Assembly: GCA_035482895.1 (NCBI GenBank)
Contig: DATHQH010000061.1
Coordinates: 96-64,095, forward strand
Source: Alloacidobacterium sp.
GTDB lineage: Bacteria > Acidobacteriota > Terriglobia > Terriglobales > Acidobacteriaceae
Reading direction: 5' to 3'
Length of the DNA: 64,000 bases
Shown piece after piece: positions 4,050 to 46,812 of this stretch. Under the pieces are notes generated by a model, which worked only from the letters and a program-made list of their open reading frames with translations, was not told where the DNA came from and searched no databases. Within the stretch, counting starts at the first letter, position 1. Every line of letters begins with the position of its first letter. The translations under genes and the position numbers were made by a program.

Positions 4050-4102
4050 CAGTCAGCGACCACCGGCTTGTGCCTTTACAGCTCCCCCAGAGAGCGATAT
4101 GC

Positions 4103-5398: not shown

Positions 5399-5464
5399 AG
5401 ATCGAGATTAGAACTGGAACACTAAACCGCGATCAGACCTTAGCAGGCGCAGCAAATATTCCCG

Positions 5465-6655
5465 ATGCTCTCAATGCATATATTGTTTTCCATAATCGGT
5501 TCGTTTCTCGTGGTCATTACGGCACCATTGGTTGTCGAGCTTTTGCTCGTTACCATCGCGAGCCTGCTGCCCAGGGGAGATACACAAAGCGTAATCGGGC
5601 ACGACACTCATCGACTGGCCGTAGTCATACCAGCGCACAATGAGGAAACTTCTATCAGCCGTTGTGTCGAAAGCTTGCGTGTTTCGGCAGATCACAGTGT
5701 CAAAGTGTACGTTGTCGCTCATAACTGCACCGATTTGACGGCCCAGCTAGCAAAGTCCGCAGGTGCCGAAGTTCTCGTCTATGACGATCCTGAGGCCATC
5801 GGGAAAGGGCATGTGCTCCGGTTTGGTTTTCAACATTCGATCCAGTGTGGAGCAGATGCTGTTTTGGTCGTTGACGCAGACTCTGTTGTATCCGTGAACC
5901 TTCTCCCCGCGGTGCAAAGTGCTTTCTCTCAAGGCGTCGAAGCCGTCCAATGCCGCTATGAGATGAAAGGCGCAAAAGGACAGGTTAAGACCGAGCTGAT
6001 TTCGCTCGCACTCCGCGGTTTCAACTTCATTCGTCCACTCGGACGTCAGCGAATCGGATTATCTGCAGGAATCTTAGGTAACGGTTTTGCGCTCTCTGCA
6101 AATGTCCTCAAGGATGTGCCCTATGATGCGCTGTCGGTTGTTGAGGACCTTGAATATCATCTGCATCTGGTTCTGGCAGGCAAGCGCGTTCATTTCCTCG
6201 ATGAAGCGGTCGTTTCATCTGAACTTCCGACCTCAACTAAAGGTGAGACCGTACAACATTCCCGTTGGGAGGGAGGCCGGTTACGGGTTGCGCACACGTG
6301 GCTGCCTAAACTGCTCAAGGAGCTTTTACGCGGCAAACTGACTGTCCTTGAACCGCTGCTCGACCTGGCCGGGTTGCCCATTGCCTTCGGTATGATGGCC
6401 TTGCTATCAGCCGCCTGCTTACCTTTGTCATGGGTGCGCCTATATGTGGTGCTGGCAATGACAGTCTTATTGGCCCATGTTTTAAGGGCAATCTCGGCCG
6501 GTCCAAGACGTCTTCATGCGCTTCGCGTGTTATTGCTGGTGCCCTTTTATCTTCTTTGGAAGCTCCGTCTCATTCCGAGTGTCTTGCGCGCTTCCAGCGC
6601 GAAGGCGGCATGGATCCGGACTGATCGCAAAGCAGAGGACAGGATTGCTGCATGA
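5465..6655 (+). CDS. Membrane-embedded processive family-2 glycosyltransferase (synthase-like, QxxRW)
   Basis: It has an N-terminal TM helix and GT-A motifs VVIPAHNEE and VVDADS, plus an ED motif (VVEDLEYH). QHSRW lies at 6254..6268, and several C-terminal TM helices follow. Confidence 0.85.
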   Translation: MLSMHILFSIIGSFLVVITAPLVVELLLVTIASLLPRGDTQSVIGHDTHRLAVVIPAHNEETSISRCVESLRVSADHSVKVYVVAHNCTDLTAQLAKSAGAEVLVYDDPEAIGKGHVLRFGFQHSIQCGADAVLVVDADSVVSVNLLPAVQSAFSQGVEAVQCRYEMKGAKGQVKTELISLALRGFNFIRPLGRQRIGLSAGILGNGFALSANVLKDVPYDALSVVEDLEYHLHLVLAGKRVHFLDEAVVSSELPTSTKGETVQHSRWEGGRLRVAHTWLPKLLKELLRGKLTVLEPLLDLAGLPIAFGMMALLSAACLPLSWVRLYVVLAMTVLLAHVLRAISAGPRRLHALRVLLLVPFYLLWKLRLIPSVLRASSAKAAWIRTDRKAEDRIAA

Positions 6656-6726
6656 ACACCTGCCCACTGCAACATATATCTCACACGAACCGATCGCTCA
6701 CACGTGACATCAAGAGGTTCTCTCTT

Positions 6727-7725
6727 ATGAAATATTCATCCTTCATCTTTACTACGTCCGTAATTGCATTGACCGTGCTGCTATTTCCATCAAATGGTAA
6801 TGCCCAACAGGCTGTTGCTAACAATCCGCAACCCGACACGCCGCAGCTCAAGATCAGCCCGTTGAAAGCCATGCAAAACTTTGAACCGCCGGCAGATGAA
6901 GAATATGAGATTGGGCCAGGAGACGAAATCAATATCGATGTCGCCGGATATCCTGAACTAACTGGGAAGCGTACTGTGGGCCCGGACGGAAGAATTACGT
7001 TGCCGGTTGCCGGCTCGATTCAAATTGCAAACCAGACACGCGAGAAAGCGGCCAAGACCCTTCAGGATGCGCTGACCTCTTATTACACGAACCCTTCTGT
7101 CACAATTGGCATTGACAAATACGGCTCGAATCGCGTGTTGATCCTCGGCAATGTACAACACCCCGGCGTGTTGTATTACGACACGACGCCGACGCTTCTG
7201 GATGCAATTGCTCGAGGAGGCCTGATGGCCAATTCGAACACGCGAGACAGCATTCCTGAAAAATGCATAATCTACCGTGGCAACGATCAAGCTTTGACCG
7301 TTGAGCTGAAACAACTACTGCAAACCGGAAGCTCAATGGCCGATATTCGCCTTCGCCGTAACGACATTGTCTTTGTCCCTGTACAGCAACAAGATTTTGT
7401 ATCCATACTCGGCGAAGTGCAGCATCCAGGCCCCCAACCTCTTACACCGGAGTTGAACCTCCGACTGGCAATTACCGAGGCGGGCGGACCTACCGACGGG
7501 GCAGGGGAAACTCCCACAATTCACATTGTTCAACCGTCGACCAACAAGACCCTTACCATTACGTGGAAAGAACTCATGACACCAAGTGGCGGGAACGAAG
7601 TGACATTGCATGCAGGCGACATGATCTTCATCCCCAAAAGTGGTTTCGAAAAATTTGCCACCGTCGTTTCAAAGATCAGCCCTCTGGCCACACTTATGAC
7701 AGTCGGAGCGTTGGCTGCACCTTAG
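6727..7725 (+). CDS. Polysaccharide export protein (Wza/Poly_export + SLBB type)
   Basis: The signal peptide is MKYSSFIFTTSVIALTVLLFPSNGNAQQ. The Poly_export motif is YEIGPGDEINIDVAGYPELTGKRTVGPDGRITLPVAGSIQIA, and SLBB-like repeats follow (ILGNVQHPG, ILGEVQHPG). An alternative start at 6652 (ATGA overlap with the upstream stop) would add 25 aa in front of the signal peptide. Confidence 0.85.
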   Translation: MKYSSFIFTTSVIALTVLLFPSNGNAQQAVANNPQPDTPQLKISPLKAMQNFEPPADEEYEIGPGDEINIDVAGYPELTGKRTVGPDGRITLPVAGSIQIANQTREKAAKTLQDALTSYYTNPSVTIGIDKYGSNRVLILGNVQHPGVLYYDTTPTLLDAIARGGLMANSNTRDSIPEKCIIYRGNDQALTVELKQLLQTGSSMADIRLRRNDIVFVPVQQQDFVSILGEVQHPGPQPLTPELNLRLAITEAGGPTDGAGETPTIHIVQPSTNKTLTITWKELMTPSGGNEVTLHAGDMIFIPKSGFEKFATVVSKISPLATLMTVGALAAP

Positions 7726-7822
7726 CATGGACCACAGATTCTGCAACCTTGCACTCGATAGCTGACACAAGAATCCCCCGACACTGGATGAATAACGACC
7801 AGATACTAAGGAACCCATCACA

Positions 7823-10057
7823 ATGTACATGACCCCGGTGAATCCTCAAGAAGCACGCAGCGCTTCTACCACCCCTCAGCTGCCGCTTCGTCCTTCCCCA
7901 AAAGGGCCCTTTTTTCGAATCAATGTGCTCGGAAGTCTGCGACTGCATGCAGTTGCGGCTGTTCTTGTCGCCCTTGTCGTTCTTGGTCTCGGTCTTGCTA
8001 TTCTTCTGCGTCGAGGAGTTAGCTATGTTACCGAAAGCACTGTCTATGTATCGCCAACCTTCCCGAAAACGCTCAATGACGATCGTGAGCAGGAATACCC
8101 GTACGACTCGTATGTGCAGCAGCAGGTGCACTCCATCACCCGCTATGACGTGATGGAAGATGCGCTTCATAAGCTTCCGCCGGGGATGTGGAAGCTTACA
8201 AAGGAGACAGATCGGGCCGCGATCGAACGATTGCAGAAGGCTCTCGATATCAAACGTGTAGGTCTGACGTATCAGGTTTCGATCACGCTCCATGGTTCGA
8301 CACCCGACCATCTCGCCGATATCGTAAATGCTATTACACAATCCTATTTGGCCAAGACAAAGAATGAGGAATTCTACGGCCGCGATGAGCGTCTCTCAAC
8401 ACTGCGTGACACGCGCGATGATCTGCGCAAGGAGCTCGACACACGCATCGAGGAGCTATCCGGCATTACGGAAACTCTTGGAATGGCCAAGGTAGGCACT
8501 GAGGGTCCTAACCCCTTTGACGACCAGCTTTCAAAAATGCGCGCTGACCTGACAGCTGCTCATAATCAGCGTGTTCAGGCTGAGGCAGAGTTGTCATCAT
8601 TGAAAAACAGCGATCCCTCGGTTCCGAATGCGGCCTTGAATGCTGCGGCCGATGAATTGATAGCGAGTGACCCTGGGCTGCTGGCTATGAAAGCAGACCT
8701 GGCGAAGAAGCGGAGTGCCCTGGTAGAGCAGCTCAGCACCCTTACGCCAAATCATCCGCTGCGCAAACAGACCGAAGATCAGTTGTCTCAAATTAATCAG
8801 ACGCTACAAGATATGCAGACGGATTTGCGCCGCAAGGCAGCCGCTCGTCTTGAAACCAAGAACCGTGCAGAGTTCAATCGGACTTCGACGATCGAAGCAA
8901 AACTGCTGAGCGACTTACAGCAAGAGACAAAAGCCGCGACATCAGCTGCTCCGAAACTGCAGCGCGCAGAAGAGCTGAAGGCTGAGATTACTCGTCTTCA
9001 AACACGTTATGCCGAAGTCGATGACCGAATCAGCAATTTGGAGCTTGAAAGCAGCTCTCCTGGGTCGATCCATCTATTCGCTGCAGCTCTGCCTCCGACC
9101 GGACCCGAATCAAGTAAATTCCGCCTTTTGATACTTGCGCTTTTTCCAGTCTCAATCTTGTGCGGAATCGGAACTGCTGTGGCCCTGGATATCTTCGATC
9201 CATACGTTCACACCGGAAGCGATATAGAGGCTCTCCTGGGATTTGCACCCATTGGTGTGCTGCTGAACGATCGTGACATCACGCAGCGAGTCTTTGACGA
9301 GTGCTCACTTCGGCTCGCTGCTGGAGTCGATCACGCTGTCCGCAGCGCAGGAGCGCGCACATTCGTGGTGACAAGCGTGGGAAGTGGTGCAGGAACAACA
9401 TCGATTGTTCAGACTATGGGCAGCACGCTGGCGCGACTTGGCCACAAAACCTTAACCATCGATGCGTCCGGTCATACAGAACCTATCGCTTACGTAACGA
9501 TGGGAATCCATGACAGCGTGGCTGGATCAGGTCATGAATCTCACTTCGAAAGCGCGGATCATTTTCAGTCGATGTCGTCGGTACCTCTGCAAACATCGGC
9601 AATTTTTTCTCAGCCTTCATCTTTGAGCAAAGCACCTCTATATAGTTTTGCTGCAAAAACTTTCCAGAAGCTGACTTCCGAATACGACGTAATTCTCATG
9701 GATACGGCGCCATTGCTCATCTCGGCTGAAACGGAATATCTTGTACGCGCGGCAGACGTCACCATTCTCGTGGCAGAAGCCGGTAAGACCAGCAAGCGCA
9801 AGTTGACCCGCTGCGCCCGCCTGCTTGAGCGGCTCGATGTAGCCGGTGTAGCCGCCGTCATCAACAAAGTTCGCTTGCTTCGCGCGGAAACCGATCTGCG
9901 ACACGATTTGCAGGAATCGGAGGCGCGCCTGAATGAGACGAATCTGAGATGGCGTTCGCATCGCAGTCCCGATCATGCCTCGGTGTCGCCGTTCGAATCA
10001 ACACCGGAGGAATCGATGGAAAGTGAAGCAGCCGCCTTTGCAACAAGCAGCAGATAG
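7823..10057 (+). CDS. Polysaccharide co-polymerase / Wzc-like chain-length determinant with degenerate P-loop ATPase domain
   Basis: The Wzz-type N-terminus has a TM helix, a long coiled-coil periplasmic region and a second TM. The C-terminal P-loop domain has VVTSVGSGAGTTS where BY-kinases have GxxxxGK(S/T). Walker A'-like (ILMDTAPL) and Walker B-like (VTILVAEAGKTS) segments are present, and the tail contains no tyrosines. Confidence 0.85.
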   Translation: MYMTPVNPQEARSASTTPQLPLRPSPKGPFFRINVLGSLRLHAVAAVLVALVVLGLGLAILLRRGVSYVTESTVYVSPTFPKTLNDDREQEYPYDSYVQQQVHSITRYDVMEDALHKLPPGMWKLTKETDRAAIERLQKALDIKRVGLTYQVSITLHGSTPDHLADIVNAITQSYLAKTKNEEFYGRDERLSTLRDTRDDLRKELDTRIEELSGITETLGMAKVGTEGPNPFDDQLSKMRADLTAAHNQRVQAEAELSSLKNSDPSVPNAALNAAADELIASDPGLLAMKADLAKKRSALVEQLSTLTPNHPLRKQTEDQLSQINQTLQDMQTDLRRKAAARLETKNRAEFNRTSTIEAKLLSDLQQETKAATSAAPKLQRAEELKAEITRLQTRYAEVDDRISNLELESSSPGSIHLFAAALPPTGPESSKFRLLILALFPVSILCGIGTAVALDIFDPYVHTGSDIEALLGFAPIGVLLNDRDITQRVFDECSLRLAAGVDHAVRSAGARTFVVTSVGSGAGTTSIVQTMGSTLARLGHKTLTIDASGHTEPIAYVTMGIHDSVAGSGHESHFESADHFQSMSSVPLQTSAIFSQPSSLSKAPLYSFAAKTFQKLTSEYDVILMDTAPLLISAETEYLVRAADVTILVAEAGKTSKRKLTRCARLLERLDVAGVAAVINKVRLLRAETDLRHDLQESEARLNETNLRWRSHRSPDHASVSPFESTPEESMESEAAAFATSSR

Positions 10058-10157
10058 CAACATCAACGGTGATGTAACAGGCACGACTCTTACATCACCG
10101 CGGAAATATATAAGCTATTCAGACCATTACGATTCTTTGCTGAAAAGTCTGTCTCCA

Positions 10158-13100
10158 ATGCACAAAGAAAATAAATTGAATTCAAACTCTGCGCGGCAAT
10201 TCGATGCAAAGCAGTACAACCATTCGAATTCAGAGCAAAAGGCCGCACTCGAAGTATCGATCGCGAAACTTTGGCAAGAATTGCTTGGTCTGCCGAGCGT
10301 CGGTCTCGAAGACAATTTCTTCGAGATGGGTGGCACATCCTTAATTGCTACAGTGCTGCTCACAAAACTAAACCAGGCACTGAACTTGAGTCTCCCTATC
10401 GCAGCCGTCTTTGAATATCCGACCGTGCGTGCCATGACAGAATTCCTGAGCGACAAGGACAACTTTGGGGTGGAAGAAATTGTCCAGTCCACGCCGCGCA
10501 AGCAGATTGACAAGTCGAATACATCCTCTGCAATCGCCATCATCGGCATGACCGGGCGCTTTCCAGGGGCGGAATCTGTCGAGGACTTCTGGGCGAATCT
10601 CTGTAATGGAGTGGAATCCATTTCTTTCTTCGACCAGGAAGAATTGGAATCGCAGGAGCGGTTCACTGGCTTGGCACCCAACTATGTTGCAGCCCGGCCC
10701 ATTCTCCAAAACACGGCGATGTTCGATGCGGACTTCTTCGGAATTTATCCCAAGGAAGCTGAACAGATGGATCCGCAACACCGCGTATTCCTCGAGTGTG
10801 CATGGGAAGTTCTTGAACGCGCGGGATATGATCCGGCGCACACAAAAGACGCGGTAGGAGTTTTCGCCGGATGCAGCATGAATACCTACTTCATGCACAA
10901 CCTGGCTGCAAATCGAAGCTTCCTCGAAACTTTTACCGGCGGGTATCAGGTCGGCTCATACGTAACGATGCTCGGCAACGACAAGGATTTTCTGCCTACA
11001 CGCGTCTCCTACAAACTGAACTTGCGTGGCCCCAGCATCAACGTCCAAACTGCTTGCTCTACGTCACTGGTCGCGGTTTGCCAGGCGTGCCAAAGTCTAT
11101 TAACTGACGGCTGCGACATGGCGCTCGCAGGGGCCGTATCCATTACTTTTCCCGAACGACGCGGCTACATTCCACAGGAAGGTGGGATCGTCTCAGAAGA
11201 CGGTCATTGCCGTCCATTCGACCATCGTGCTACTGGAACCGTCTTCGGATCAGGTGCGGCCATTTTATTGCTGAAGCGACTGGATGACGCCATTGCCGAC
11301 GGCGATCAAGTGCTCGCCGTCATCCGCGGTTTCGCGTTAAACAACGATGGTTCCAATAAAGTTGGCTACACCGCGCCGAGTGTTGAAGGTCAGTCCCAGG
11401 TCATTCTACGGGCTCAACAGATGGCGGGAGTCACAGCTGACTCCATCTCCTATATTGAGGCACATGGAACGGCCACACCGCTTGGCGACCCTATTGAAGT
11501 TGCAGCACTAGCAAAAGCATTCAGCAAGTCCACACATGCCCGGCAATTCTGCTCCATCGGCACAGCCAAGGCGAATGTTGGCCATCTGGATGTCGCCGCA
11601 GGAGCTACTGGGCTGATCAAAACCGTATTACAGATCGAAAATCGCACCATTCCTAAGCTGCTTCATTTTGAAAAGCCGAATCCTCATCTGGATCTGAACA
11701 ACACTCCGTTTAAGGTTGCCCAAAATACTCAGCCATGGAAAACAGACAGCCTGCCACTCCGTGCAGGCGTGAGTGCCTTTGGTATGGGCGGAACAAACGC
11801 TCACGTCATCGTTGAAGAAGCCCCAGTTCCCACTCTTTCTGACCAGGGACGCGCACATCAGCTGCTGCTTTGCTCAGCGAAAACGCCAACCGCTCTTACA
11901 ACGATGACCAATGATCTTGCACATTTCTTCGCAACGCAATCAGATGTCAATCTCGCCGACGCAGCCTATACACTCCAGACTGGACGCAGTCGCCACAAGC
12001 ACCGTAGTGCGCTTGTCGCAAGCAGCGCAGAGGAAGTATCGGAAGCGCTCAAGAAACAAAGCAGTGAAATTCTGCGCGAAGACACACCTTTAGAAAATCC
12101 ATCCATCGTCTTTTGCTTTCCCGGCCAGGGTGTGCAGGCGGTGAATATGGGGCGCAAGCTGTATGAGTCCGAGCCGGTTTTCCGGCAAGTGATGGATGAA
12201 TGCAACACCATCCTGCGACCGCTACTTGGCGAGAACCTCCTCGATCTTCTCTACTCCTCTGAAACTGCAACAGACGCAGCGGCGCGCCTGAATGAAACAG
12301 CATACGCGCAGCCGGCGATCTTCGCATTTGAATACGCATTGGCGCAGCTCTGGCTCTCATGGGGAATCTGTCCGGACGCGATGGTTGGCCATAGCATTGG
12401 CGAGTATGTGGCGATGTGCATTGCCGGAGTCTTCTCACTTGAAGATGCCCTGCGACTCATCGCCGTGCGCGGACGATTTATGCAGAAGATGCCGCGTGGC
12501 TCTATGTTGAGTGTGCGCGCCAGTCAGGAAAGAGTTGTCGCGTTGATAGGCAATGATCTTGACCTCGCGGCTGTCAATGGACCACAACTCTGCGTAGTCT
12601 CGGGCCCGGATGACGCCATCGCAGCATTCGCTGCGAAGCTTGATGGGCAAGGAATCGTTCATCGCAAGTTGGCCACATCACACGCCTTCCATAGCCGTAT
12701 GGTGGACCCTGCCCTCGCTCCGTTCGCGGAGTTTGTGCGGGGTATCGTTTTCGGAGCACCAACAATTCCATGCGTTTCCACTCTGACAGGGAAATGGATC
12801 ACAGGACAGGAAGTCGCGCATCCCGAATACTGGACGCGTCAATTGAGAAGCACAGTACGGTTTGCCGACGCCATTCGCGAACTGGCACGCACGCCAGAAC
12901 GAATCTTTCTCGAAGTCGGACCCGCTGAAACGCTTGTGCAACTCATTCGTCCGACAATGAATGAGAAAAGCACCGTGAAAGCGAATGCACACATCGCGCT
13001 TGCTTCGCTGCCTTCGGTACGCGACGGGGTTTCTGAAGATAAAGCCATCCTGAACACGCTTGGACGTCTCTGGCTGTCAGGTGCCACTCCAGATTGGAAC

Positions 13101-16100
13101 ACTTTTCATGCAGGCTACATGCGCAAACGCATCCTGCTGCCAACATATCCTTTTGAGCGAAAAAGATTTTGGGTAGCACCTCCGCGAATTCCAACTTTGC
13201 CCCCGACAACCTATGCAGTGACAGCTCCAGTAGAAGAGGAACAACACCCGATGACCACACCGGTTGCCAACGGTTCTGCAATGTTGAATGAGCTTCAGCT
13301 TCTTATTACCGACCTCTCTGGTATCGATCTCGCAGGTGCCGATCCAGAATCGTCTTTCCTTGAGCTTGGATTTGACTCTCTCTTTCTGACGCAATTGACA
13401 CAGGCAATTCAGGGAAAATACCGCTTAAAACTTACTTTTCGTCAGATCATGGAGAACTATCCTACTCTGAGAGCACTCACAGCGCATCTTGAGGCAAATG
13501 TAACGCCTGAGCTACGCACGGCTGCACCGAGCAATGTGGCGCCTCCCGCACAGATTGCAGCGACGACGAGCGTTCCGGCACTGCTCGCTGCGGCTGCACC
13601 GCTTATCACTCCCACTGGCACTATGGAGGCGCTCTTCACCGCGCAGATGCAGGCTTTGACCGGTCTCTTCCAGCAGCAGTTAGCCATACTTGGTGCGTCA
13701 CAGCTGGACTCTGCACCCGCGTCGCTTTCGATTCAAACTAAGACACAACAAGTTGTTCCATCTAAAGCGATTTCTCCTGCTACGACGGCAACTACAGCTG
13801 CTTCGTCCCCAACGTTTGACGACAAGCCGACGAAGCCAGTCTTTACGCCATTCAAGCCGTTGCAGCTCAGCGACGACAATAAGCTAAACGCTGTACAAGA
13901 AAAATACCTTAGCGACTTCATTCATCACTACAATCAGCGCAGCTCTCGTTCGAAGAAGTTTACGCAGGAACACCGCAAGGTATTTGCCGATGGCCGCGTC
14001 GTATCGGGATTCAATGCACAGATCAAGGACCTCATCTATCCGCTGGTTGTAGATCGCGCCAAAGGTTCGTATCTGTGGGACAAAGACGGCAACCGTTACA
14101 TCGATATTTTGAATGGCTATGGAGCCATCCTCTTTGGCCACTCGCCCGATTTTCTTGTGGATGCAGTGCATAAGCAGCTGGATTTGGGTTTTGCCATCGG
14201 ACCGCAAACTGAGCTTGCCGGCGAATGTGCAGGGTTGGTGCACGATCTCACGGGAATGGAGCGGGTTACTTTCTGCAACACAGGCTCTGAGGCGGTTATG
14301 GGAGCCATGCGTCTGGCACGCACTGTCACCGGCCGCAACCTGATTGTGCTCTTCTCCGGTGACTATCATGGCAGTTTTGATGAAGTGCTGGTAAAAGCTG
14401 TAGGCGGCCACCGCTCGATGCCGGTCGCACCAGGCATTCCACGTGAAAGCGTCGCGAACATTCTTGTGCTCGACTACGGCACGCCGGAAAGTCTTGAAAT
14501 CATTCGCCAGCGCGCCCATGAGCTTGCTGCAGTTCTCGTCGAGCCGGTACAGAGCCGCCATCCCGATCTCCGCCCCGCAGAATTCCTAAAGGAGGTCCGT
14601 CGCATCACCCAGCAAAATGGAACCGCGCTCATCTTCGATGAAGTGGTCACCGGCTTCCGCACACACCCTGGAGGCATGCAGGCTGTCTATGGCATCCAGG
14701 CGGACCTGGCAACCTATGGCAAAGTTGTAGCGGGCGGCCTGCCTGTCGGCGTGCTCGCCGGAAGTTCGGCCTTCATGGACGCGCTCGACGGAGGCATGTG
14801 GCAGTACGGTGATTCGTCTTTCCCCGAAGCGGGCGTTACTTTCTACGCGGGAACCTTCATGAGGCACCCGCTGGCACTTGCCGGTGTGCGCGCTTGCCTG
14901 CAACACATCAAGAAAGAAGGTCATGGACTGCAAGAGCGACTTGCCACCAAGACTGCAAGCCTCGTGCATGACATTCAGGGCATGCTGAAGGATTTTTCCC
15001 ATCCGTCCTCAATCGAGACATATTCGTCGTGGTTCTATCTGCCTGCAGCAACCGACCCCTTCCTCACCCGCATGCTGCATTTCCATCTGCGCGAGCAGGG
15101 CGTGCATATTCAGGAAGGTTTTCCCTGCTTTCTGACAACTGCACATTCGGACGCAGACTTCGACTTTGTTCGCGAAGCCTTTCACAGCAGCTTGCGGGCG
15201 ATGCGTGCTGGGCAAGCGCTACCACAACCCACAGGTACACTGAGTACATTAGAAGAGCCAGCCGCAGCACAATCTGCTTCGTTGGAGACTGCGACCCGTT
15301 CTATTCCGATCACCGAAGCGCAACGCGAAATCCTTCTTGGAGCGCAGCTCGGAGACGACGCGAATTGCTCCTTCAATGAATCGACTTCGCTAGCGCTCAA
15401 GGGCAAATTAAATGAACGGGCATTGATAAGCGGGCTTGAACAGCTCGTTCAACGCCATGACTCTTTGCGTCTCAATTTTGATATGGGCAGCGAGACCGCC
15501 GTTGTCGCTCCGTCAGCTGCAATCAAGGTGGAACGCCACGACCTAAGTCAGCTTTCCGCAAAAGAAAGAGCGGCACAGCATCAGGCCCTCATCGATCAGG
15601 AGAGTTCAACGCCTTTCGATTTAGTGCACGGACCCTTGTTCCGGATTCATTTGATCCGTCTGGCTGCTGATGAACATGTTGTCCTCTTCACGGCGCACCA
15701 CATCATTTTTGACGGCTGGTCGACAAATGTATTCTTTAACGAACTGAGCGATCTCTATAACGCAACGGTAAACGGACATAAGACCAATCTCCCCATTCCC
15801 ATTACCTTCACCCAATTCGCTATCGACCAGCGCGAGCACGTGGCGAATGACAATTGTCGCACCACGGAGACCTTTTGGATGGAGCAGTTCGACACCACAC
15901 CGTTGCCCTTGCAAATCCCTACGGACAGACCGCGTACCACCGTGCGCAGCCATGAAGGCGCAACAAACCGCTACGTTTTTGATAGCGAATTATTCCAAGC
16001 CGTCCGCAAAGCCGGCGCACGCCAGGGCAGCACGTTATTCGCTACATTGCTTGCCGCCTTTGCCCAACTGATCCATCGTCTTTCAGAGCAGGACGACGTC

Positions 16101-18533
16101 GTGATCGGCATCCCGATGGCGGGGCAGTCGAAAATAAACAACGGATCGACGCTTGTTGGACACTGCGTCAACTTCCTGCCGATTCGCAGCCGACTGTTGG
16201 CAGATCAAACGCTTGCTGACTTTCTGAAGCAAACACGCAAGATGCTACTCGATGCCTATGATCATCAGGACTATACATATGGCACGCTGCTACACAAACT
16301 CAAACTGCCACGCGATCCCTCTCGTCCAGGGCTGATTGAAGTTCAGGCGAATGTAGAACAGGTAGGGGCAAGTCTTTCTTTCGATGGGCTATCAGCCGAT
16401 CTTCGCTCCAACGGAAAAAAACATGTCAACATGGATCTGTTCTTCAACTTCGTCGACCGTGGCGCCGAGCTTTGGTTGGAGTGCGACTATAATACTGGCC
16501 TTTTTGACAGTGCAACGATTGACCGCTGGTTCGGGCACCTAAACGCCATACTGCAGGCGTTTGCTCAGGATCTGACACAACCCTGCACTGACGTTTCACT
16601 GTTGACACGGATGCAACAGCAGGAAATTCTTGTTGACTGGAATCGAACATCTACGGACTATCCTCGTAACAATTCCATCCATCGAATCTTTGAACAACAG
16701 GTCATTCAAACACCTGACTCGATTGCACTGATCGCAGGCAAACACAACCTAACCTATGCGGAGATCAACGAAAAAGCCAATCAGCTCGCTCACTATCTCA
16801 TCCGCGCAGGCATCCGGCCTGGCGCGCGCGTGGCGCTCTGCGCAGATCGCTCAGCGGAAGTCATCGTAAGCCTGCTGGCTATACTTAAAACTGGGGCTGC
16901 CTACGTCCCGATCGATCCGAGTTACCCGGCGCAGCGCCTTATATATCTCATCAGCGACTCGGCAGCAAAGATACTGCTCACACGTAGCACGATCGCTGAC
17001 AAGCTGCCGCAACTCGATACGAACGTCCTTTTGCTGGATCAGGAGTGGCCGACAATCGCTCTTGAAAGCAGCTCTAATCTTTCTCATGATGGCCACGCAG
17101 AAGATCTCGCGTACGTCATGTACACCTCCGGCTCTACGGGAAATCCAAAAGGTGTTCTGGTGCCGCATCGCGCGATTGCTCGCCTGGTCAAAAACAATTC
17201 TTTTGCCAGCTTTAGCGCAGATGAGGTGTTTCTGCAGCTCGCACCTCTATCATTCGACGCAGCCACTTTTGAAATCTGGGGAGCATTCCTCAATGGTGGA
17301 CGCCTGGTATTGGCCACTGGCGAACGGATAACACCGGAAGACATTGGACTCCATATCAAGGAGCATGGCGTTACAACGCTTTGGCTTACCGCCGCGCTAT
17401 TCCATCTCATCGCCACAGAGCACATCGAAATTTTGCGTCCGTTGCGTCAATTGCTTGCCGGCGGTGACGTACTGTCTCTCACCCATGTGCGCCGTGTCTG
17501 TGAGCAACTGCCTCACTTAAAGCTCATCAATGGATATGGGCCGACGGAAAACACCACGTTCACTTGCTGTCACACCGTTACGCTTGAAAGTACTACCGCG
17601 GGCACTGTGCCAATTGGAAGACCTATTGCAAATACCCGCATATATATTCTCGATTCGAATATGCGGCCAGTACCTCCAGGCGCGACCGGAGAGCTGTATG
17701 CTGCAGGCGATGGACTTGCCTTGGGTTATTTGAATGCTTCAGAACTAACCGCAGCAAAGTTCATCGACCACATATTCACCAATGACTGCTCAGAGCGCCT
17801 CTATCGCACCGGAGACCTTGCCCGATATCGCGCAGACGGCACAATCGAATTTCTTGGCCGCATGGATACACAAGTCAAGATTCGCGGCTATCGCATTGAG
17901 TTGGCCGAAATTGAATATGCGCTCGAACAGTCTCCCAAAGTGCGTTCTGCCGTAGTCGCTGTACGCACGGACTGGGTTACGCCGAATGACACTCCGGGCG
18001 ATAAGCGGCTGGTGGCATATGTCATTCCAGAACAGCCCGGAGACAATAACTCCCTGATGCAGGAACTTCGGCAATATTTGCTGGAGCGTCTGCCGGAATA
18101 TATGCGCCCAGCGGCGATGATGGTTCTGGAAAGCTTTCCGCGGACAGTGAATGGCAAGATCGACCGACGCGCTTTGCCTGCTCCCGTTCCTGAACAACTG
18201 CTGCGCAAAAGGACAATCGTCTACCCACGTAATCAGAATGAAGAAATTCTAGCGGGCATTTGGACGAAAACGCTTGCGTTGAAAGAAGTCGGCGTGGAAG
18301 ACAGCATCTTTGAGCTGGGAGGAGATTCCCTTCTCATCTTCCGCATCACTGCACTTGCCAATCAGGCAGGGCTGAAAGTAAATGCACGACACTTCTTTCA
18401 GCATCGAACAATTGCCGGCATCTGCTCACAACTGGAAGAAACCGCGACGATCTCAGTCAAAGCTAATGCAGTTGCGCCGATCCAAGCAATCCCACGCTCG
18501 CAGTACCGCCAAAAGCTTCAATCACTTAAGTAA
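10158..18533 (+). CDS. Hybrid type I PKS / NRPS: T(PCP-like)-KS-AT-ACP-aminotransferase(class III)-C-A-T
   Basis: Motifs read from the translation:
- Carrier FFEMGGTSL, Ser codon 10338-10340.
- KS: IAIIGMTGRFPG, TACSTS (Cys 11055-11057), EAHGTATPLGDP, NVGHLD.
- AT: GQGVQ, GHSIGE (Ser 12393-12395), HAFH (malonyl type).
- ACP: LGFDSLFL (Ser 13377-13379).
- PLP aminotransferase: NTGSEAVMGAMRLAR, FDEVVTGFR, YGKVVAGG (Lys 14721-14723).
- C: HHIIFDGWS (15696..).
- A: YTSGSTGNPKGV, NGYGPTE, GELYAAGDGLALGY, YRTGDLARY, GRMDTQVKIRGYRIELAEIE, NGKIDR.
- PCP: FELGGDSLL.
The start is uncertain. The track ORF begins at 9975, overlapping the upstream gene by 83 nt; 10158 is the first downstream ATG. Confidence 0.93.
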   Translation: MHKENKLNSNSARQFDAKQYNHSNSEQKAALEVSIAKLWQELLGLPSVGLEDNFFEMGGTSLIATVLLTKLNQALNLSLPIAAVFEYPTVRAMTEFLSDKDNFGVEEIVQSTPRKQIDKSNTSSAIAIIGMTGRFPGAESVEDFWANLCNGVESISFFDQEELESQERFTGLAPNYVAARPILQNTAMFDADFFGIYPKEAEQMDPQHRVFLECAWEVLERAGYDPAHTKDAVGVFAGCSMNTYFMHNLAANRSFLETFTGGYQVGSYVTMLGNDKDFLPTRVSYKLNLRGPSINVQTACSTSLVAVCQACQSLLTDGCDMALAGAVSITFPERRGYIPQEGGIVSEDGHCRPFDHRATGTVFGSGAAILLLKRLDDAIADGDQVLAVIRGFALNNDGSNKVGYTAPSVEGQSQVILRAQQMAGVTADSISYIEAHGTATPLGDPIEVAALAKAFSKSTHARQFCSIGTAKANVGHLDVAAGATGLIKTVLQIENRTIPKLLHFEKPNPHLDLNNTPFKVAQNTQPWKTDSLPLRAGVSAFGMGGTNAHVIVEEAPVPTLSDQGRAHQLLLCSAKTPTALTTMTNDLAHFFATQSDVNLADAAYTLQTGRSRHKHRSALVASSAEEVSEALKKQSSEILREDTPLENPSIVFCFPGQGVQAVNMGRKLYESEPVFRQVMDECNTILRPLLGENLLDLLYSSETATDAAARLNETAYAQPAIFAFEYALAQLWLSWGICPDAMVGHSIGEYVAMCIAGVFSLEDALRLIAVRGRFMQKMPRGSMLSVRASQERVVALIGNDLDLAAVNGPQLCVVSGPDDAIAAFAAKLDGQGIVHRKLATSHAFHSRMVDPALAPFAEFVRGIVFGAPTIPCVSTLTGKWITGQEVAHPEYWTRQLRSTVRFADAIRELARTPERIFLEVGPAETLVQLIRPTMNEKSTVKANAHIALASLPSVRDGVSEDKAILNTLGRLWLSGATPDWNTFHAGYMRKRILLPTYPFERKRFWVAPPRIPTLPPTTYAVTAPVEEEQHPMTTPVANGSAMLNELQLLITDLSGIDLAGADPESSFLELGFDSLFLTQLTQAIQGKYRLKLTFRQIMENYPTLRALTAHLEANVTPELRTAAPSNVAPPAQIAATTSVPALLAAAAPLITPTGTMEALFTAQMQALTGLFQQQLAILGASQLDSAPASLSIQTKTQQVVPSKAISPATTATTAASSPTFDDKPTKPVFTPFKPLQLSDDNKLNAVQEKYLSDFIHHYNQRSSRSKKFTQEHRKVFADGRVVSGFNAQIKDLIYPLVVDRAKGSYLWDKDGNRYIDILNGYGAILFGHSPDFLVDAVHKQLDLGFAIGPQTELAGECAGLVHDLTGMERVTFCNTGSEAVMGAMRLARTVTGRNLIVLFSGDYHGSFDEVLVKAVGGHRSMPVAPGIPRESVANILVLDYGTPESLEIIRQRAHELAAVLVEPVQSRHPDLRPAEFLKEVRRITQQNGTALIFDEVVTGFRTHPGGMQAVYGIQADLATYGKVVAGGLPVGVLAGSSAFMDALDGGMWQYGDSSFPEAGVTFYAGTFMRHPLALAGVRACLQHIKKEGHGLQERLATKTASLVHDIQGMLKDFSHPSSIETYSSWFYLPAATDPFLTRMLHFHLREQGVHIQEGFPCFLTTAHSDADFDFVREAFHSSLRAMRAGQALPQPTGTLSTLEEPAAAQSASLETATRSIPITEAQREILLGAQLGDDANCSFNESTSLALKGKLNERALISGLEQLVQRHDSLRLNFDMGSETAVVAPSAAIKVERHDLSQLSAKERAAQHQALIDQESSTPFDLVHGPLFRIHLIRLAADEHVVLFTAHHIIFDGWSTNVFFNELSDLYNATVNGHKTNLPIPITFTQFAIDQREHVANDNCRTTETFWMEQFDTTPLPLQIPTDRPRTTVRSHEGATNRYVFDSELFQAVRKAGARQGSTLFATLLAAFAQLIHRLSEQDDVVIGIPMAGQSKINNGSTLVGHCVNFLPIRSRLLADQTLADFLKQTRKMLLDAYDHQDYTYGTLLHKLKLPRDPSRPGLIEVQANVEQVGASLSFDGLSADLRSNGKKHVNMDLFFNFVDRGAELWLECDYNTGLFDSATIDRWFGHLNAILQAFAQDLTQPCTDVSLLTRMQQQEILVDWNRTSTDYPRNNSIHRIFEQQVIQTPDSIALIAGKHNLTYAEINEKANQLAHYLIRAGIRPGARVALCADRSAEVIVSLLAILKTGAAYVPIDPSYPAQRLIYLISDSAAKILLTRSTIADKLPQLDTNVLLLDQEWPTIALESSSNLSHDGHAEDLAYVMYTSGSTGNPKGVLVPHRAIARLVKNNSFASFSADEVFLQLAPLSFDAATFEIWGAFLNGGRLVLATGERITPEDIGLHIKEHGVTTLWLTAALFHLIATEHIEILRPLRQLLAGGDVLSLTHVRRVCEQLPHLKLINGYGPTENTTFTCCHTVTLESTTAGTVPIGRPIANTRIYILDSNMRPVPPGATGELYAAGDGLALGYLNASELTAAKFIDHIFTNDCSERLYRTGDLARYRADGTIEFLGRMDTQVKIRGYRIELAEIEYALEQSPKVRSAVVAVRTDWVTPNDTPGDKRLVAYVIPEQPGDNNSLMQELRQYLLERLPEYMRPAAMMVLESFPRTVNGKIDRRALPAPVPEQLLRKRTIVYPRNQNEEILAGIWTKTLALKEVGVEDSIFELGGDSLLIFRITALANQAGLKVNARHFFQHRTIAGICSQLEETATISVKANAVAPIQAIPRSQYRQKLQSLK

Positions 18534-18538
18534 GCAAC

Positions 18539-21500
18539 ATGGACCGACAATTGATGTCCGCTGATCATGAAGAGCTCACTCCAAAGGCTGGACCCATGAC
18601 CCTACCCGTGCAAGATGCTTCAGCAGAAATACCACAAAAAACTGAGGATGTGTATCTCTTCCCCGCTAGCTTGGAGCAGCATCGTTACTGGATTTTAGAT
18701 CAGGTCGACCAGGCTTCTACGGCTTCCAACATGGCCATCACTTTTCGCCTTGTTGGAGAGATAGATGACATATTGGCGGAGAAAAGTATTTGTGCGCTTA
18801 CTTTGCGTCACGAAGCGCTACGCACAACATTCAGAATGATCGATGGTGCTCTCAATCAGGTCATCTCAGAAGAGCCGCTCTATCATTTTTCTGTATCCGA
18901 TCTCAGGATTCTTCCCAAAGAAGAGCGCTCAGAACAGGCGGAGAAGATCATTCGTGAGCATAGTCATGTCGCGATGAATCTGGCTACGGGGCCGCTCTTC
19001 TTCGCGCGTCTTATTCACGTAAGCGATCAGGATCACTTTCTCGCCTGCACCATGCACCATATTGTGTGTGACGGGTGGTCGAATGGAATCCTCGTACGCG
19101 ACTTCGCGGAATTCTACTCCGCATACTCGCAGGATCGTTCGCCCGAACTCGCCGAACTTCCTTTCCAATTTGCCGACTTCACCATTTGGCAAAAAGAATG
19201 GCTGGCCAGCGAAGCGGCCGAAGATGCATTGAATTTTTGGAGAGAACAGATACGGCGTGAGATACCTGCTGTCGATCTGCCTACGGATTATCCGAGAAAT
19301 GCCCGCAAGGATGGTCCAGGCGATATCGAATCCCAGTTGATGCCCCCACCTCTGAACGAGCGGTTGAAAAGGTTTTGCCGCGAGCGGGGGACGACAAACC
19401 ACCAGGTTCTACTGGCCGTTTTTCAATGCCTTATTTCACGCTACACCAGCCAGGAGCAATTTCTACTCGGCTCAAGTATTGCAAACCGCACTCAGGCGGG
19501 AATGGATCATGTGGTAGGCCGCTTTGCGAATCCTCAGGTCATCCTCGCAGACGTTTCCGGCAATCCAGGTTTTGATGAGTTGCTCCATCGCGTAGTTGAG
19601 TGGACAACCTCTGCCTACGCGCATCAGGATTTGCCTTTTTCGCGTCTTATGGAAGAGTTTCAGCTTGATCAGAGTGGCGCAACATCGCAGTTTTTACAGA
19701 TCTACTTTGTTTATCAGAAAGCCTTCATGCAGCCCCAGAATGCTGGGGCATTGCAAGTTGCTCCCCGTCCTTCCGTGAGCGGCGGCGTCAATTTCGATCT
19801 TTTAGTCAGCATTGTGGAGCGCGCTGAAGGCCCAAGGATGCAGATCGAGTACAACACCGATCTTTTCAAACGAGAGCGCATACGGAAGTTTATTCAGCAA
19901 TACATTCGTGTACTCGCTTCTGTTCTGGATGCGCCGGCTTTGAAGATTTCTCAGTTACCCCTTCTTTCATCCGACGAAGAACTGGCCCTGCGTCGAGCCG
20001 GAAGCGGTCCTTCCCTGTCCCGCATTTATTCTTCCTCCCTTGTCGAAGCATTTGATAGACATGCGTCGGCTTTCGGAACGGCCACTGCTGTCATTGCCGG
20101 CGATGCGCGCACTTCATGGAAAGCCCTTGCTGACAAAAGCATTCAGTTTGCATATGCGCTCCAGAACCTGAATATTGAACAAGGCCAAATCGTCGCACTG
20201 CGCATGGAACCCAACTCGGATGCGGCAGCGGCGGCACTTGCAATCTTGCGTATCGGCGCAGTTGCTTTACCGATTCCGGGCTCGACAAGTGCCGACGAGT
20301 GGAAGCGCATGCTTGCCCAACTGGAACCAGCGGCTGTTTTGGCCGGGTCTGAGTTCTCAAGTGATCTTTCATCACTTATTAGCTTCGAAAAATTGAGTAA
20401 ATTGGCACGTCCCCACGGCGATCTACCATCTATTCTCGCCGGGGCTCCTGCATGGTGCGGATTAAGTCTCGACAAGGCTGGCCAGTACCAGACACATATC
20501 GCTACACACGAACAAACCGCTGCCTCTCTGGCTGGTGCTGCCCAGGCGCTTCATCTTACCGCAGGCGATGCTATCGCAATTAGAGCCGCTTCTACGTCAA
20601 CGGATGCGTGGGTTGATTTACTGCTTCCGTTAACCAGCGGAGCAAGCATCTTGCATTTGCATAACGCGACCGACGCTCAACTACAGGCTATTCTTGTCCG
20701 CGAACAAATCAGCTTTGCATGTGCTACCCCCGGGGAATGGCTTGCACTACTTGACAGCGGTTGGTGTGGCGACCGCAGATTGCAGATGATCTGCCGTGGA
20801 GATCGTCTTCCTTCTACGGTGAGCAAACGCTTTGTTCCACTAGGACGTGTCTGGTCACTTATCTCATCCGCCCTGGCCGGCGGTCCCATAAGCGTGGCGT
20901 CACTCGATAAAGAATCCCCGTGTAAGAATCCGGCTAGCCCGCTACCTGGACAGGCATTTACAGTCATTGATGCGTGGGACAACCCTGTCCCTGAAGGCGT
21001 CATTGGCGAGCTGGTGCTGTCGAATGCCGAGACATCGACCAAGACAGGACTTTTGGCTCAATACCCTCTCGGCGGCAGTTTTGAGGTTGTCGACCAAGTG
21101 CGGAATCGGGTACGCCTGCATGGATACCGTTTACGCCTGGGTGAGATTGAAGATCGTCTCATCGCATGCCACGGAGTGGGATATGCGAAGGCAGCAATTC
21201 AGAATGATTCCAGAGAAAGCCTAGCATTAGTTGCTTATATTGCAGGGACGAATGGAACATCTCCTGATGTTGGCGAAGTGAGCCGGCTCCTTCGTTCTTC
21301 CGCTCCCGGCCATCTTGCTTGTGCAGAACTTTTATCAGTAGACAACATTGTTCTCCGCCCGGACGGATCGCCTGACGCTAACTCACTTTCCCAATTTAAT
21401 GTGACCACAACTGATCTGACGAATAGCGAGGATTACATTCCCCCAAGGGATGAGATTGAATCAAGACTTGTCGAAATCTGGGAAGATGTTCTCGGCGTCA

Positions 21501-22510
21501 AGGGTATAGGCATACGAAATAGCTTTTTCACGCTTGGCGGCTATTCGTTAATGATCGTGCGTCTGTTTGCCCGCATCAATAAGGCAATGAATGCTTCTTT
21601 GCCCATTACTACTATTTTTAATGCTCCGACCGTCGAGCAACTGGCGGACATTCTGAGGGGTCGTCGCGCTTACTCTTCCATTGTTCCCGTAAGAACAGAA
21701 GGCACCAAGCCGCCGTTTTTTATGATCCTTTCGTATCTTCTTTATGGATCGCTGCCGGATGCGATTGGGAGTGAATATCCCTTTTATGGATTAAGAGAAT
21801 TGGACGGCGAAAAAACCACGACACCGGAATTGCGGGCGGCCGCATATGTCAAGGCGATTCGCTCCATTCAGCCGCGCGGTCCCTATTACCTGGGCGGGTG
21901 GTGCGCGGCAGGGCCACTTACGATCGAGGTTGGCCGTCAGCTCATGGAAAGTGGACAACAGGTCGGTCTCGTCACCCTGTTTGACTCATGGCACCCTGGA
22001 TATGCGGAGAGACTGAAACAAGAACAAAAAACAGCCGGGATCTCCACACTCAGCGCGAAGCTGCGTCACAGATATATCTTCCACCGCGATAAAATGCGGA
22101 ACCAGACAGCTGCGGGCGGACTTGGTTACCTTCACACTGTTGCCGTGAATAAACTTCGCTCGATGCGTGATGCTGTTTACTTAAAACACTGGTCTGCCAC
22201 AACAAAGGCCTTCAAAACTCTTGGGTTTCCGCTGCCGGACTTTATGCACAACCTCACAGAAACAACGCTTTTATCGCTTCAACGGTACGAACCTCGGCCA
22301 TTTCGCGGCAACGTTATGCTAATGCGCGCGATGAAGGCTCCAAATCTTCCCGGAGCCGACGCCACGTGCGGGTGGAACAAAATAGTCGAAGGAGCCATCG
22401 ATGTCCGATGGGTGCCGGGGGATCACGAAACCATGTTCCTTGAGCCTAATTTAGAGGCCGTTGGCAAGAACCTCCGAGAAAGCCTTGAACAAGCACAGCA
22501 AAGGCTCTGA
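18539..22510 (+). CDS. NRPS termination module: C - degenerate A-like domain - T - thioesterase
   Basis: The C domain has LEQHRYWILDQ and MHHIVCDGWS. The A-like region keeps A4- and A8-like segments (TSGASILHL, VRLHGYRLRLGEIE) but lacks the A3 P-loop, the A5, the A7 Asp and the A10 Lys. PCP is FFTLGGYSLM (Ser 21545-21547). The TE has GGWCAAG (Cys 21902-21904) and GDHETMF. It begins 5 nt after the upstream stop. Confidence 0.9.
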   Translation: MDRQLMSADHEELTPKAGPMTLPVQDASAEIPQKTEDVYLFPASLEQHRYWILDQVDQASTASNMAITFRLVGEIDDILAEKSICALTLRHEALRTTFRMIDGALNQVISEEPLYHFSVSDLRILPKEERSEQAEKIIREHSHVAMNLATGPLFFARLIHVSDQDHFLACTMHHIVCDGWSNGILVRDFAEFYSAYSQDRSPELAELPFQFADFTIWQKEWLASEAAEDALNFWREQIRREIPAVDLPTDYPRNARKDGPGDIESQLMPPPLNERLKRFCRERGTTNHQVLLAVFQCLISRYTSQEQFLLGSSIANRTQAGMDHVVGRFANPQVILADVSGNPGFDELLHRVVEWTTSAYAHQDLPFSRLMEEFQLDQSGATSQFLQIYFVYQKAFMQPQNAGALQVAPRPSVSGGVNFDLLVSIVERAEGPRMQIEYNTDLFKRERIRKFIQQYIRVLASVLDAPALKISQLPLLSSDEELALRRAGSGPSLSRIYSSSLVEAFDRHASAFGTATAVIAGDARTSWKALADKSIQFAYALQNLNIEQGQIVALRMEPNSDAAAAALAILRIGAVALPIPGSTSADEWKRMLAQLEPAAVLAGSEFSSDLSSLISFEKLSKLARPHGDLPSILAGAPAWCGLSLDKAGQYQTHIATHEQTAASLAGAAQALHLTAGDAIAIRAASTSTDAWVDLLLPLTSGASILHLHNATDAQLQAILVREQISFACATPGEWLALLDSGWCGDRRLQMICRGDRLPSTVSKRFVPLGRVWSLISSALAGGPISVASLDKESPCKNPASPLPGQAFTVIDAWDNPVPEGVIGELVLSNAETSTKTGLLAQYPLGGSFEVVDQVRNRVRLHGYRLRLGEIEDRLIACHGVGYAKAAIQNDSRESLALVAYIAGTNGTSPDVGEVSRLLRSSAPGHLACAELLSVDNIVLRPDGSPDANSLSQFNVTTTDLTNSEDYIPPRDEIESRLVEIWEDVLGVKGIGIRNSFFTLGGYSLMIVRLFARINKAMNASLPITTIFNAPTVEQLADILRGRRAYSSIVPVRTEGTKPPFFMILSYLLYGSLPDAIGSEYPFYGLRELDGEKTTTPELRAAAYVKAIRSIQPRGPYYLGGWCAAGPLTIEVGRQLMESGQQVGLVTLFDSWHPGYAERLKQEQKTAGISTLSAKLRHRYIFHRDKMRNQTAAGGLGYLHTVAVNKLRSMRDAVYLKHWSATTKAFKTLGFPLPDFMHNLTETTLLSLQRYEPRPFRGNVMLMRAMKAPNLPGADATCGWNKIVEGAIDVRWVPGDHETMFLEPNLEAVGKNLRESLEQAQQRL

Positions 22511-24861: not shown

Positions 24862-24926
24862 CAGAGACAATCTCGCTCTTTAATCTGTAACAAGCCGATG
24901 TTCAATGACGTTTTATAAGGGAACTG

Positions 24927-26318: not shown

Positions 26319-26528
26319 CGAATCCGCCTTCGAATTTAGTTGCAATAATTTCCTCGTTTTGCTCGCAATGACAGCTAGATAACACTTACAGTCGATCTGT
26401 TTTTAAATGGGCAGATTGTTTCGAGTATGCCTTTCCTCTCAAACTGCACAACGGGTTTATTCGTCGCTTCTAACACGATCGCCTGGATCACTGTCTCAGC
26501 CGAACGATAACTCATTGGAGATAAGTAA

Positions 26529-32809: not shown

Positions 32810-33122
32810 ACGGACACTTCTTTCGAAAGTAGTGCAAGGGGGATCTTTGCTTCATTACTAACTTTTGTTTTTATAGTAAAGATACTCAGCAGCCGGTTAT
32901 ATTGCGCAGCAGTACGAGCGATTAGGAGCAGGAAGGAGAGTGATCGCCCGGACTTAAACGATTAAGAGGCTAAAACTGTACTTCTCAGGCTTGTTACGCC
33001 TGATTATAGCGTTGGGATTCTTATAAAATAAAACTAGTTAAGGACCGTCCATTGGTCCAGGAACTTTCGTCACAGACGGGTTCTTCATAACCGCGCGCAA
33101 GAGTAAATAATTCCCTAACTGC

Positions 33123-35413: not shown

Positions 35414-35433
35414 TACGTGGCGGCTCTATTTTT

Positions 35434-46800: not shown

Positions 46801-46812
46801 GTTTCGTGCTCT

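Follow-up and report, generated by a model that had tools for sequence, protein, structure and literature searches.

Polyketide-peptide assembly lines in which a ketosynthase (KS), an acyltransferase (AT) and an acyl carrier protein (ACP) precede an aminotransferase (AMT) and a nonribosomal peptide synthetase (NRPS) module are known from MycA, ItuA and BmyA of Bacillus and from McyE and NdaF of the microcystin and nodularin pathways. MycA starts with a fatty-acyl ligase domain, makes a β-amino fatty acid, takes Asn as its first amino acid and is followed by six more NRPS modules, whereas the AMT of McyE and NdaF installs the β-amino group of Adda. Related chemistry occurs in biotin synthesis, in which BioF and BioA convert an amino acid and a carboxy-acyl thioester into an α-amino ketone and then, by a class-III aminotransferase, into a vicinal diamine. 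Here we describe two adjacent synthetase genes in a 64,000-nucleotide stretch (the window) of Alloacidobacterium sp., an uncultured member of the Acidobacteriaceae (GenBank assembly GCA_035482895.1, contig DATHQH010000061.1, positions 96 to 64,095, forward strand). The locus looks like a valine-primed hybrid with a single functional adenylation domain and a cysteine thioesterase (TE), embedded in an exopolysaccharide operon, and not like an iturin-type lipopeptide synthetase.

Comparison with described systems

The first synthetase shares with MycA, ItuA and BmyA the order carrier-KS-AT(malonyl)-ACP-AMT-condensation (C)-adenylation (A)-thiolation (T) and the lack of a reductive domain, and the MycA AMT is the closest relative of known structure. 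In contrast to MycA, it has no ligase, its first carrier resembles a peptidyl carrier protein (PCP), its starter is probably valine and its first A domain (A1) has a code for Val rather than Asn. Only one further, A-less module follows (C-A*-T-TE, 1323 aa), then a phosphopantetheinyl transferase (PPTase) and polysaccharide genes; the TE is of Cys type and the genes lie in a polysaccharide operon. McyE and NdaF likewise have KS-AT-ACP-AMT followed by an NRPS module, but McyE takes a long polyketide from an upstream polyketide synthase (PKS; McyG, McyD) and activates Glu. No upstream or other PKS is present in the window, where the gene upstream encodes a Wzc-type co-polymerase. The initial annotation had filed the locus as MycA/ItuA/McyE-type, an assignment left unsupported by the lack of a fatty-acyl ligase and an upstream PKS and by the PCP-like carrier before the KS. 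The KS-AT-ACP-AMT-C-A-T core should operate in the manner of MycA. The locus does not belong to the MycA/ItuA family in the strict sense, since it has no acyl ligase, β-amino fatty acid logic or heptapeptide line, and it is not McyE-like, since no PKS precedes it. BioF and BioA perform the same formal chemistry as that proposed below for KS and AMT, but are free-standing enzymes with free intermediates and have no evolutionary link to them beyond the aminotransferase class.

The nearest published concept is the carenaemin system of Collimonas arenae, for which genetics shows that a single secreted product requires both cplA-K, which encode a KS/AT-AMT-NRPS hybrid, and a distinct sugar locus of Wzy type (PMC8313283). 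In its authors' model, the peptide is joined to a lipid-linked sugar unit before flipping takes place (PMC8313283). Both systems couple a KS/AT and an AMT to NRPS modules and are linked, there by genetics and here by gene position, to a Wzy-dependent sugar and export locus. They differ in that the two carenaemin loci lie far apart on the chromosome, whereas here both functions share one operon, and in that carenaemin uses Gln, Ser and Leu, has PKS parts containing a ketoreductase (KR) and is of unsolved structure.

Domain architecture of the first synthetase

The first synthetase is encoded by an open reading frame (ORF) at 9975..18533 on the plus strand (2852 aa), in which Pfam matches place T0-KS-AT-ACP-AMT-C-A-T in a single protein, with a KS-AT linker between KS and AT:

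10260..10448, plus strand: T0 carrier, PCP-like (PP-binding, aa 96-158; Ser122 in GGTSL, nt 10338-10340)
10530..11672, plus strand: condensing ketosynthase (ketoacyl-synt N and C, aa 186-566, 6.8e-70)
12108..12989, plus strand: malonyl-type acyltransferase (Acyl_transf_1, aa 712-1005, 2.9e-57)
13275..13508, plus strand: ACP (PP-binding; Ser1135 in LGFDSL, nt 13377-13379)
13893..15227, plus strand: class-III pyridoxal phosphate-dependent aminotransferase, AMT (Aminotran_3, aa 1356-1677, 6.3e-49; Lys1583, Asp1555)
15300..16631, plus strand: condensation domain C1 (Condensation, aa 1776-2219, 9.2e-89; HHIIFDG)
16689..18158, plus strand: adenylation domain A1 (AMP-binding and AMP-binding_C, aa 2239-2728, 1e-88; code DAFWLGGTFK)
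18237..18434, plus strand: T2 carrier (PP-binding; Ser2785 in GGDSL)

The region from KS to T2, which the initial annotation had delimited from position 10,525, is real and intact, and the C-A-T module that it placed after the AMT is matched in order by Condensation, AMP-binding and PP-binding; the conserved N-terminal carrier T0 had been overlooked. The KS retains Cys361 in TACSTS (nt 11055-57), His497 in HGTAT (11463-65) and His537 in NVGH (11583-85), in agreement with the earlier view of a condensing enzyme, and the malonyl signature of the AT was likewise found, with GHSIGE at aa 805-810, Arg832 and HAFH at aa 903-906. When the window protein is aligned with 70 full-length orthologues (71 sequences), the named KS, AT, carrier, AMT and C residues prove invariant, including the T0 serine and both Lys1583 and Asp1555 of the AMT. 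A KSQ or an inactive AMT is ruled out by the invariant Cys/His/His set and the invariant Lys/Asp pair.

The first ATG of the long ORF lies inside the upstream Wzc-type gene, producing an overlap at 9975-10057. The true start is probably further downstream, in the interval 10023-10158, at either the GTG (nt 10023) or the ATG (nt 10158), because the first ~50 codons (9975-10157) are missing in 97% of orthologues.

The aminotransferase and the linkers around the ACP

The AMT region (aa 1301-1760) has as its best match among solved structures the AMT of MycA (6KFM, 6KFR; ACP-AMT construct 6KFU), to which it aligns end to end over the full length (E 1.8e-125, 422 bits), whereas the nearest glutamate-1-semialdehyde aminomutase scores ~197 bits. 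No other stretch of the protein is as well conserved, the AMT reaching 88-93% mean column identity in the 71-sequence alignment. Together with the Aminotran_3 match, this bears out the reading of the 13.9-15.2 kb region as a class-III aminotransferase, and the lysine codon predicted at 14721-14723 is AAA, encoding Lys1583. The MycA AMT moves the amine of Gln to an ACP-bound β-keto thioester (Aron et al. 2005, as summarised in PMC3870968). Homology to this functionally characterised enzyme makes the β-keto to β-amino step well founded, and the predicted conversion of the ACP-bound β-keto thioester to a β-amino thioester, followed by condensation onto a Val-like residue, is well supported, as the initial annotation had anticipated. 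We regard it as very likely that the domain chemistry of the synthetase is as read here.

The absence of KR, dehydratase (DH) and enoylreductase (ER) domains between AT and ACP, also part of that annotation, holds for both ACP-flanking linkers. No Pfam match of any kind was obtained in aa 1001-1109 or aa 1168-1333 even at E<=10. When aa 1001-1340 were modelled with AlphaFold2 from a 13-sequence alignment, the ACP was the only folded part, a helix bundle at aa 1101-1178 with a predicted local distance difference test score (pLDDT) of 86-90; the model has no β strands, and pLDDT is below 50 in residues 1-16, 48-99, 183-214 and 240-285 of the modelled stretch. A hidden KR, DH or ER is thereby ruled out.

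The AMT does not follow the ACP directly, as had been stated, but is separated from it by a linker of ~130 aa. This linker is otherwise disordered and poorly conserved, but contains two conserved elements: a lone helix at aa 1217-1238 (13623-13688; EALFxAQxQALxxLFQQQL) and the motif KPxFxPFKPLQRG at aa 1287-1299 (13833-13871). Both may serve the AMT in docking or dimerisation.

Specificity of A1 and the starter unit

The A1 code, DAFWLGGTFK, read at the standard anchor motifs, matches the canonical Val signature within one residue, in keeping with the Val-like partner proposed earlier. The register is valid because the same alignment recovers the textbook Gly code DILQLGMIW from related loci. 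Solved A-domain structures did not discriminate specificity, with the Val and Gly modules of LgrA scoring alike, so the call rests on the code. No AMP-binding or acyl-ligase domain precedes T0 by Pfam, aa 1-96 being without a match at E<=10, and within the 64-kb window no other intact adenylating enzyme, including a fatty acyl-AMP ligase (FAAL), accompanies A1.

The likely source of the starter emerges from relatives of the locus. An AMT profile scan, with one genome per species, defined a family of 80 loci, the closest of which belongs to an Alloacidobacterium metagenome-assembled genome (87%). In 38 loci outside the clade of the window, an A domain (A0) lies just upstream of T0, as a separate A-T protein or a fusion; its code is Val-like in 36 and exactly DAFWLGGTF in 20. 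Window T0 is homologous to the T domain of the separate A0-T0 loader proteins (43% over 69 aa, E 1.8e-14). To judge by these loader codes (36/38), the family is primed by valine and not by a fatty acid. Given a Val-specific family loader, the expected unit is a Val-derived β,γ-diamino acid rather than a β-amino fatty acid, probably 3,4-diamino-5-methylhexanoate or a similar compound. The β-amino fatty acid lipopeptide that the initial annotation implied is probably wrong, in view of the missing acyl ligase, the PCP-like T0 and the Val-specific loaders of the family.

The window clade, comprising the window and 16 other species-level genomes, all of Acidobacteriaceae, departs from this arrangement: A0 is absent and T0 present in every one of its loci. 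Its A1 code is DAFWLGGTF or DALWLGGTF (Val), and the Gly code found in other loci is absent. A neighbour-joining tree built from 129 A domains places the A1 domains of the clade with loading domains, in a common clade of 38 A0, 16 clade A1 and one other, apart from ~60 other A1 domains that are mostly Gly-coded. Likewise, window A1 is 48-50% identical to A0 of Bryobacteraceae and 40-41% identical to their A1. Most simply read, module 1 now holds a loader-type Val domain that is the sole aminoacyl source and would load T0, T2 and probably T3. A Val starter loaded by A1 is modestly favoured.

Relatives of the synthetase

Full-length orthologues form more than 70 clusters of 60-86% identity in Acidobacteriaceae, including Paracidobacterium acidisoli, Silvibacterium and Acidicapsa ligni, and more distant versions of ~3100 aa occur in Bryobacteraceae, where an NRPS-type A domain is fused before T0 (A0 in cis). 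Across the loci, identity is 55-87% for the AMT and 44-78% for KS-AT; KS-AT of the window is 50-57% identical to that of Val-primed relatives. Outside the window clade, the module after the AMT has a Gly code (DILQ.G..W) in 52/61 loci, and the third module, where its A domain is live, is usually Gly-coded too. Members of the family occur in Acidobacteriota, Alpha- and Gammaproteobacteria, Cyanobacteria, Planctomycetes and Vulcanimicrobiota. In the wider family (L017-L084), conserved neighbours are a PAF-AH/PETase-like hydrolase (21 loci), a ~299-aa protein of no assigned family (16 loci), a Cupin_8 protein (15 loci) and a CmlA-like diiron β-hydroxylase (7 loci). All four are absent from the window and hence are not part of this locus. 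Full-text literature searches turned up neither the Val-primed family nor its polysaccharide linkage, and papers on Granulicella and peatland biosynthetic gene clusters do not mention the family.

The second synthetase and chain release

The second synthetase, C2-A(dead)-T3-TE, comes next after the first and is followed by the PPTase gene:

18539..22510, plus strand: second synthetase, 1323 aa
18662-19981, plus strand: C2 (HHIVCDG)
20021-21418, plus strand: degenerate A domain (A3, A4, A5, A7 and A10 motifs lost)
21464-21652, plus strand: T3 carrier
21716-22471, plus strand: TE (Cys1122, nt 21902-21904, in GGWCAAG; His1296, GDH histidine motif)
22535..23359, plus strand: Sfp/HetI-type phosphopantetheinyl transferase

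The dead A domain (A2) has lost its core motifs but is full length and in frame in the window and the 16 related genomes (17 sequences), and the same architecture, including the Cys TE, is kept throughout the clade. It evolves faster than the other domains, being 49% identical to its closest relative where they reach 71-87%. Between C and T of 21 more distant loci, only a remnant of the A C-terminal subdomain persists. Among the 80 related loci, a Cys TE occurs only in terminal modules without a functional A domain (25/25), whereas those with an intact A domain have a Ser TE (8/8). The best solved match of T3-TE is the termination module of AB3403, a C-A-T-TE protein of Acinetobacter baumannii (4ZXH/4ZXI; E 3.2e-24), which also has a Cys in the nucleophile elbow (GGWCFGG) and a GDH histidine motif. 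AB3403 differs in that its A domain is intact, and the two proteins belong to different pathways.

The exopolysaccharide gene run

Both synthetase genes lie inside a run of ~24 kb in which all annotated genes are on the plus strand, in the order Wzc-type co-polymerase, two synthetases, PPTase, Wzy-like protein, Wzx and family 4 glycosyltransferase (GT4). The polysaccharide genes on either side are as follows:

3501..4049, plus strand: UpxY/RfaH-like antiterminator, first gene of the run
3965-5398, plus strand: WecG/TagA-type glycosyltransferase with a C-terminal STAS (anti-sigma antagonist) domain
3501..10057, plus strand: upstream half of the run (antiterminator, WecG-STAS, EpsU-like GT2, Wza-type exporter, Wzc-type co-polymerase)
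7823..10057, plus strand: Wzc-type co-polymerase (744-aa protein, weak EpsF/tyrosine-autokinase models)
23479..36042, mixed strands: downstream half (Wzy-like protein, Wzx flippase, GT4, lectin-domain protein, GT4, GT2, hexapeptide acyltransferase)

The components of a Wzx/Wzy-type locus are present (Polysacc_synt_3 5.7e-43, Poly_export 6.8e-22, GT2/GT4/WecG), with Wzy_C matched at 36.9 bits against a cut-off of 31.7. Intergenic gaps in the run are 5-210 nt. Terminator-like sites are no commoner there than by chance, and promoter and terminator scans, at or below chance, are neutral on a single operon.

The order GT2-Wza-Wzc-synthetase-synthetase(-PPTase) is kept in all 16 clade genomes. Although tblastn with the polysaccharide proteins of the window found nothing in most distant loci, the iterated hidden Markov models that replaced it recovered Wza, Wzx, phosphoglycosyl transferase (PHPT), GT4, GT2 and WecG genes flanking 30/64 of them. 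These genes often lie on both sides and are on the synthetase strand in 51/61 cases (enrichment judged qualitatively), and a PHPT-family phosphoglycosyl transferase stands beside the synthetase genes in 11 related loci. Gene orders differ among Bryobacterales, Gammaproteobacteria and Alphaproteobacteria, and the persistence of the linkage through such reshuffling in different phyla speaks for a functional connection. Missing polysaccharide genes in the distant loci are weak evidence, because the flanks examined there span only ~4-6 kb.

The sequence of the window occurs in at least 20 soil metagenome runs. In four soil metatranscriptomes, short contigs of at least 95% identity (at least 99% in 11/15) match Wzc, the AMT, the junction of the two synthetase ORFs (18415-18600) and Wzy. 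The locus is seen in RNA libraries, in few short contigs that are too few for operon mapping.

Proposed pathway and alternative explanations

The best explanation of the locus, which we hold to be probable by a modest degree, is a Val-primed two-protein hybrid line with a single live A domain, set in an exopolysaccharide operon, with a product attached to or exported with the polysaccharide. In this pathway, the live A domain, presumably descended from the loading A domain of the family, would activate valine and load T0, T2 and probably T3. The KS would join Val-S-T0 and malonyl-ACP to give 4-amino-5-methyl-3-oxohexanoyl-S-ACP, on which no KR would act, and the MycA-type AMT would transaminate the 3-keto group to yield ACP-bound 3,4-diamino-5-methylhexanoyl, a vicinal diamine derived from an α-amino ketone. 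C1 would couple the diaminoacyl group to Val-S-T2, and C2 would hand the chain to T3, which could not be loaded by its own dead A domain, for release by the Cys thioesterase. The product would most likely be attached to, or exported with, polysaccharide, given that its genes lie within the operon and come without a dedicated exporter or regulator. Covalent coupling of the two ranges in our estimation from unlikely to possible. An unlikely but more detailed version is that one Val A domain serves three carriers to give 3,4-diamino-5-methylhexanoyl-Val(-Val), which the Cys TE would off-load onto a lipid-linked repeat-unit sugar, such that the operon would produce a cationic exopolysaccharide with peptide-polyketide decorations or caps; with Gly for Val, this coupling would then extend to the related loci of Bryobacterales and Proteobacteria.

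Several points weigh against this pathway. No product has been described for any family member, and Stachelhaus codes predict specificity without proving it. That A1 loads several carriers is deduced solely from the lack of further A domains in the 64 kb, and the rest of the genome could encode a FAAL or an A domain acting in trans. A free γ-amine beside a β-keto thioester could cyclise and leave before the AMT acts. As to the polymer, gene linkage is no proof of a covalent link, and no initiating phosphoglycosyl transferase of Bac_transf or WecA type was found in the 64 kb by PHPT-family search and Pfam scans. The RNA evidence is sparse, and DNA carry-over in the metatranscriptome runs is possible.

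If a FAAL encoded elsewhere loaded a fatty acid on T0, the line would be iturin-like, joining a β-amino fatty acid to Val, perhaps as a lipid anchor of the polysaccharide. The MycA order of its domains and the affinity of its AMT to that of MycA fit such a route, as does the lack of a loader gene beside T0, which calls for trans-loading of some kind, and the T0-KS stretch also aligns with the N-terminal ACP-KS of Pks13. It is nevertheless quite improbable: T0 is PCP-like and homologous to the T of Val-specific loaders, KS-AT resembles that of Val-primed relatives, the remaining A domain is of loader type, and a FAAL is found neither in the 64 kb nor in any of the 16 syntenic loci. Decay of the whole system into a non-functional one is hardly credible. 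A0 has indeed been lost, and A2 lacks all core motifs and evolves faster, but the catalytic residues of KS, AT, carriers, AMT, C1 and A1 are invariant in 71 sequences, 16 other genomes retain the architecture with its in-frame dead A2 and Cys TE, and transcript fragments are present in soil.

The strongest competitor to the polysaccharide-linked pathway, though rather unlikely, is a free diffusible peptide-polyketide, such as a metal-binding diamine or a signal, made by genes that are co-located and co-regulated with polysaccharide genes and have no covalent or export link to them. Many distant members do carry tailoring genes of ordinary clusters (Cupin_8, CmlA-like hydroxylase, PAF-AH-like hydrolase), and about half of the distant loci have no polysaccharide gene in the examined flank, an absence that counts for little over so short a distance. 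Against a free metabolite stands the position of the genes in the window clade: they share one strand with the Wzc gene before them and the Wzy/Wzx genes after them, are spaced by 5-120 nt and bring no exporter. The linkage also turns up again, in varying gene orders, among Acidobacteriaceae, Bryobacterales and Gammaproteobacteria.

Acidobacteriaceae rank among the most abundant soil bacteria, and their exopolysaccharides are thought to be important in soil aggregation and in survival of drying. The conservation of an assembly line within a polysaccharide operon suggests a polymer that bears an unusual cationic peptide-polyketide group or is produced alongside one; if true, this would change how the chemistry of the polymer is analysed. 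The locus also brings together three uncommon NRPS features in one small system suited to reconstitution: an amino-acid-primed KS followed by an aminotransferase, as a route to β,γ-diamino acids; one A domain that apparently serves several carriers after others were lost or decayed; and the strict pairing of Cys thioesterases with A-less terminal modules.

Other features of the window

In the middle of the polysaccharide locus, on the minus strand (27677-32809), a 1710-aa protein combines three legume-lectin-type domains with CHB_HEX_C/Fn3_assoc repeats, and Paracidobacterium (L001) has a protein with similar repeats at the corresponding position. A sigma-54 activator (1082-2596, minus strand) and the UpxY-like antiterminator stand ahead of the locus. 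An anti-sigma-type kinase (HATPase_c_2) is encoded at 39294-39815; together with the STAS fusion, it hints that the polysaccharide locus is controlled by partner switching. Scans of the window for Rfam families and tRNAs gave no match. Further downstream, at 44107-52244, three tandem genes encode duplicated MacB_PCD/FtsX permeases of ~880 aa each, an architecture typical of Acidobacteria. Between ~40000 and 44000, GC content rises from ~0.48-0.55 to 0.57-0.60 and GC skew flips from negative to positive, with a cumulative skew minimum at ~40-42 kb; this shift may mark a boundary with DNA of different origin or a replication landmark.

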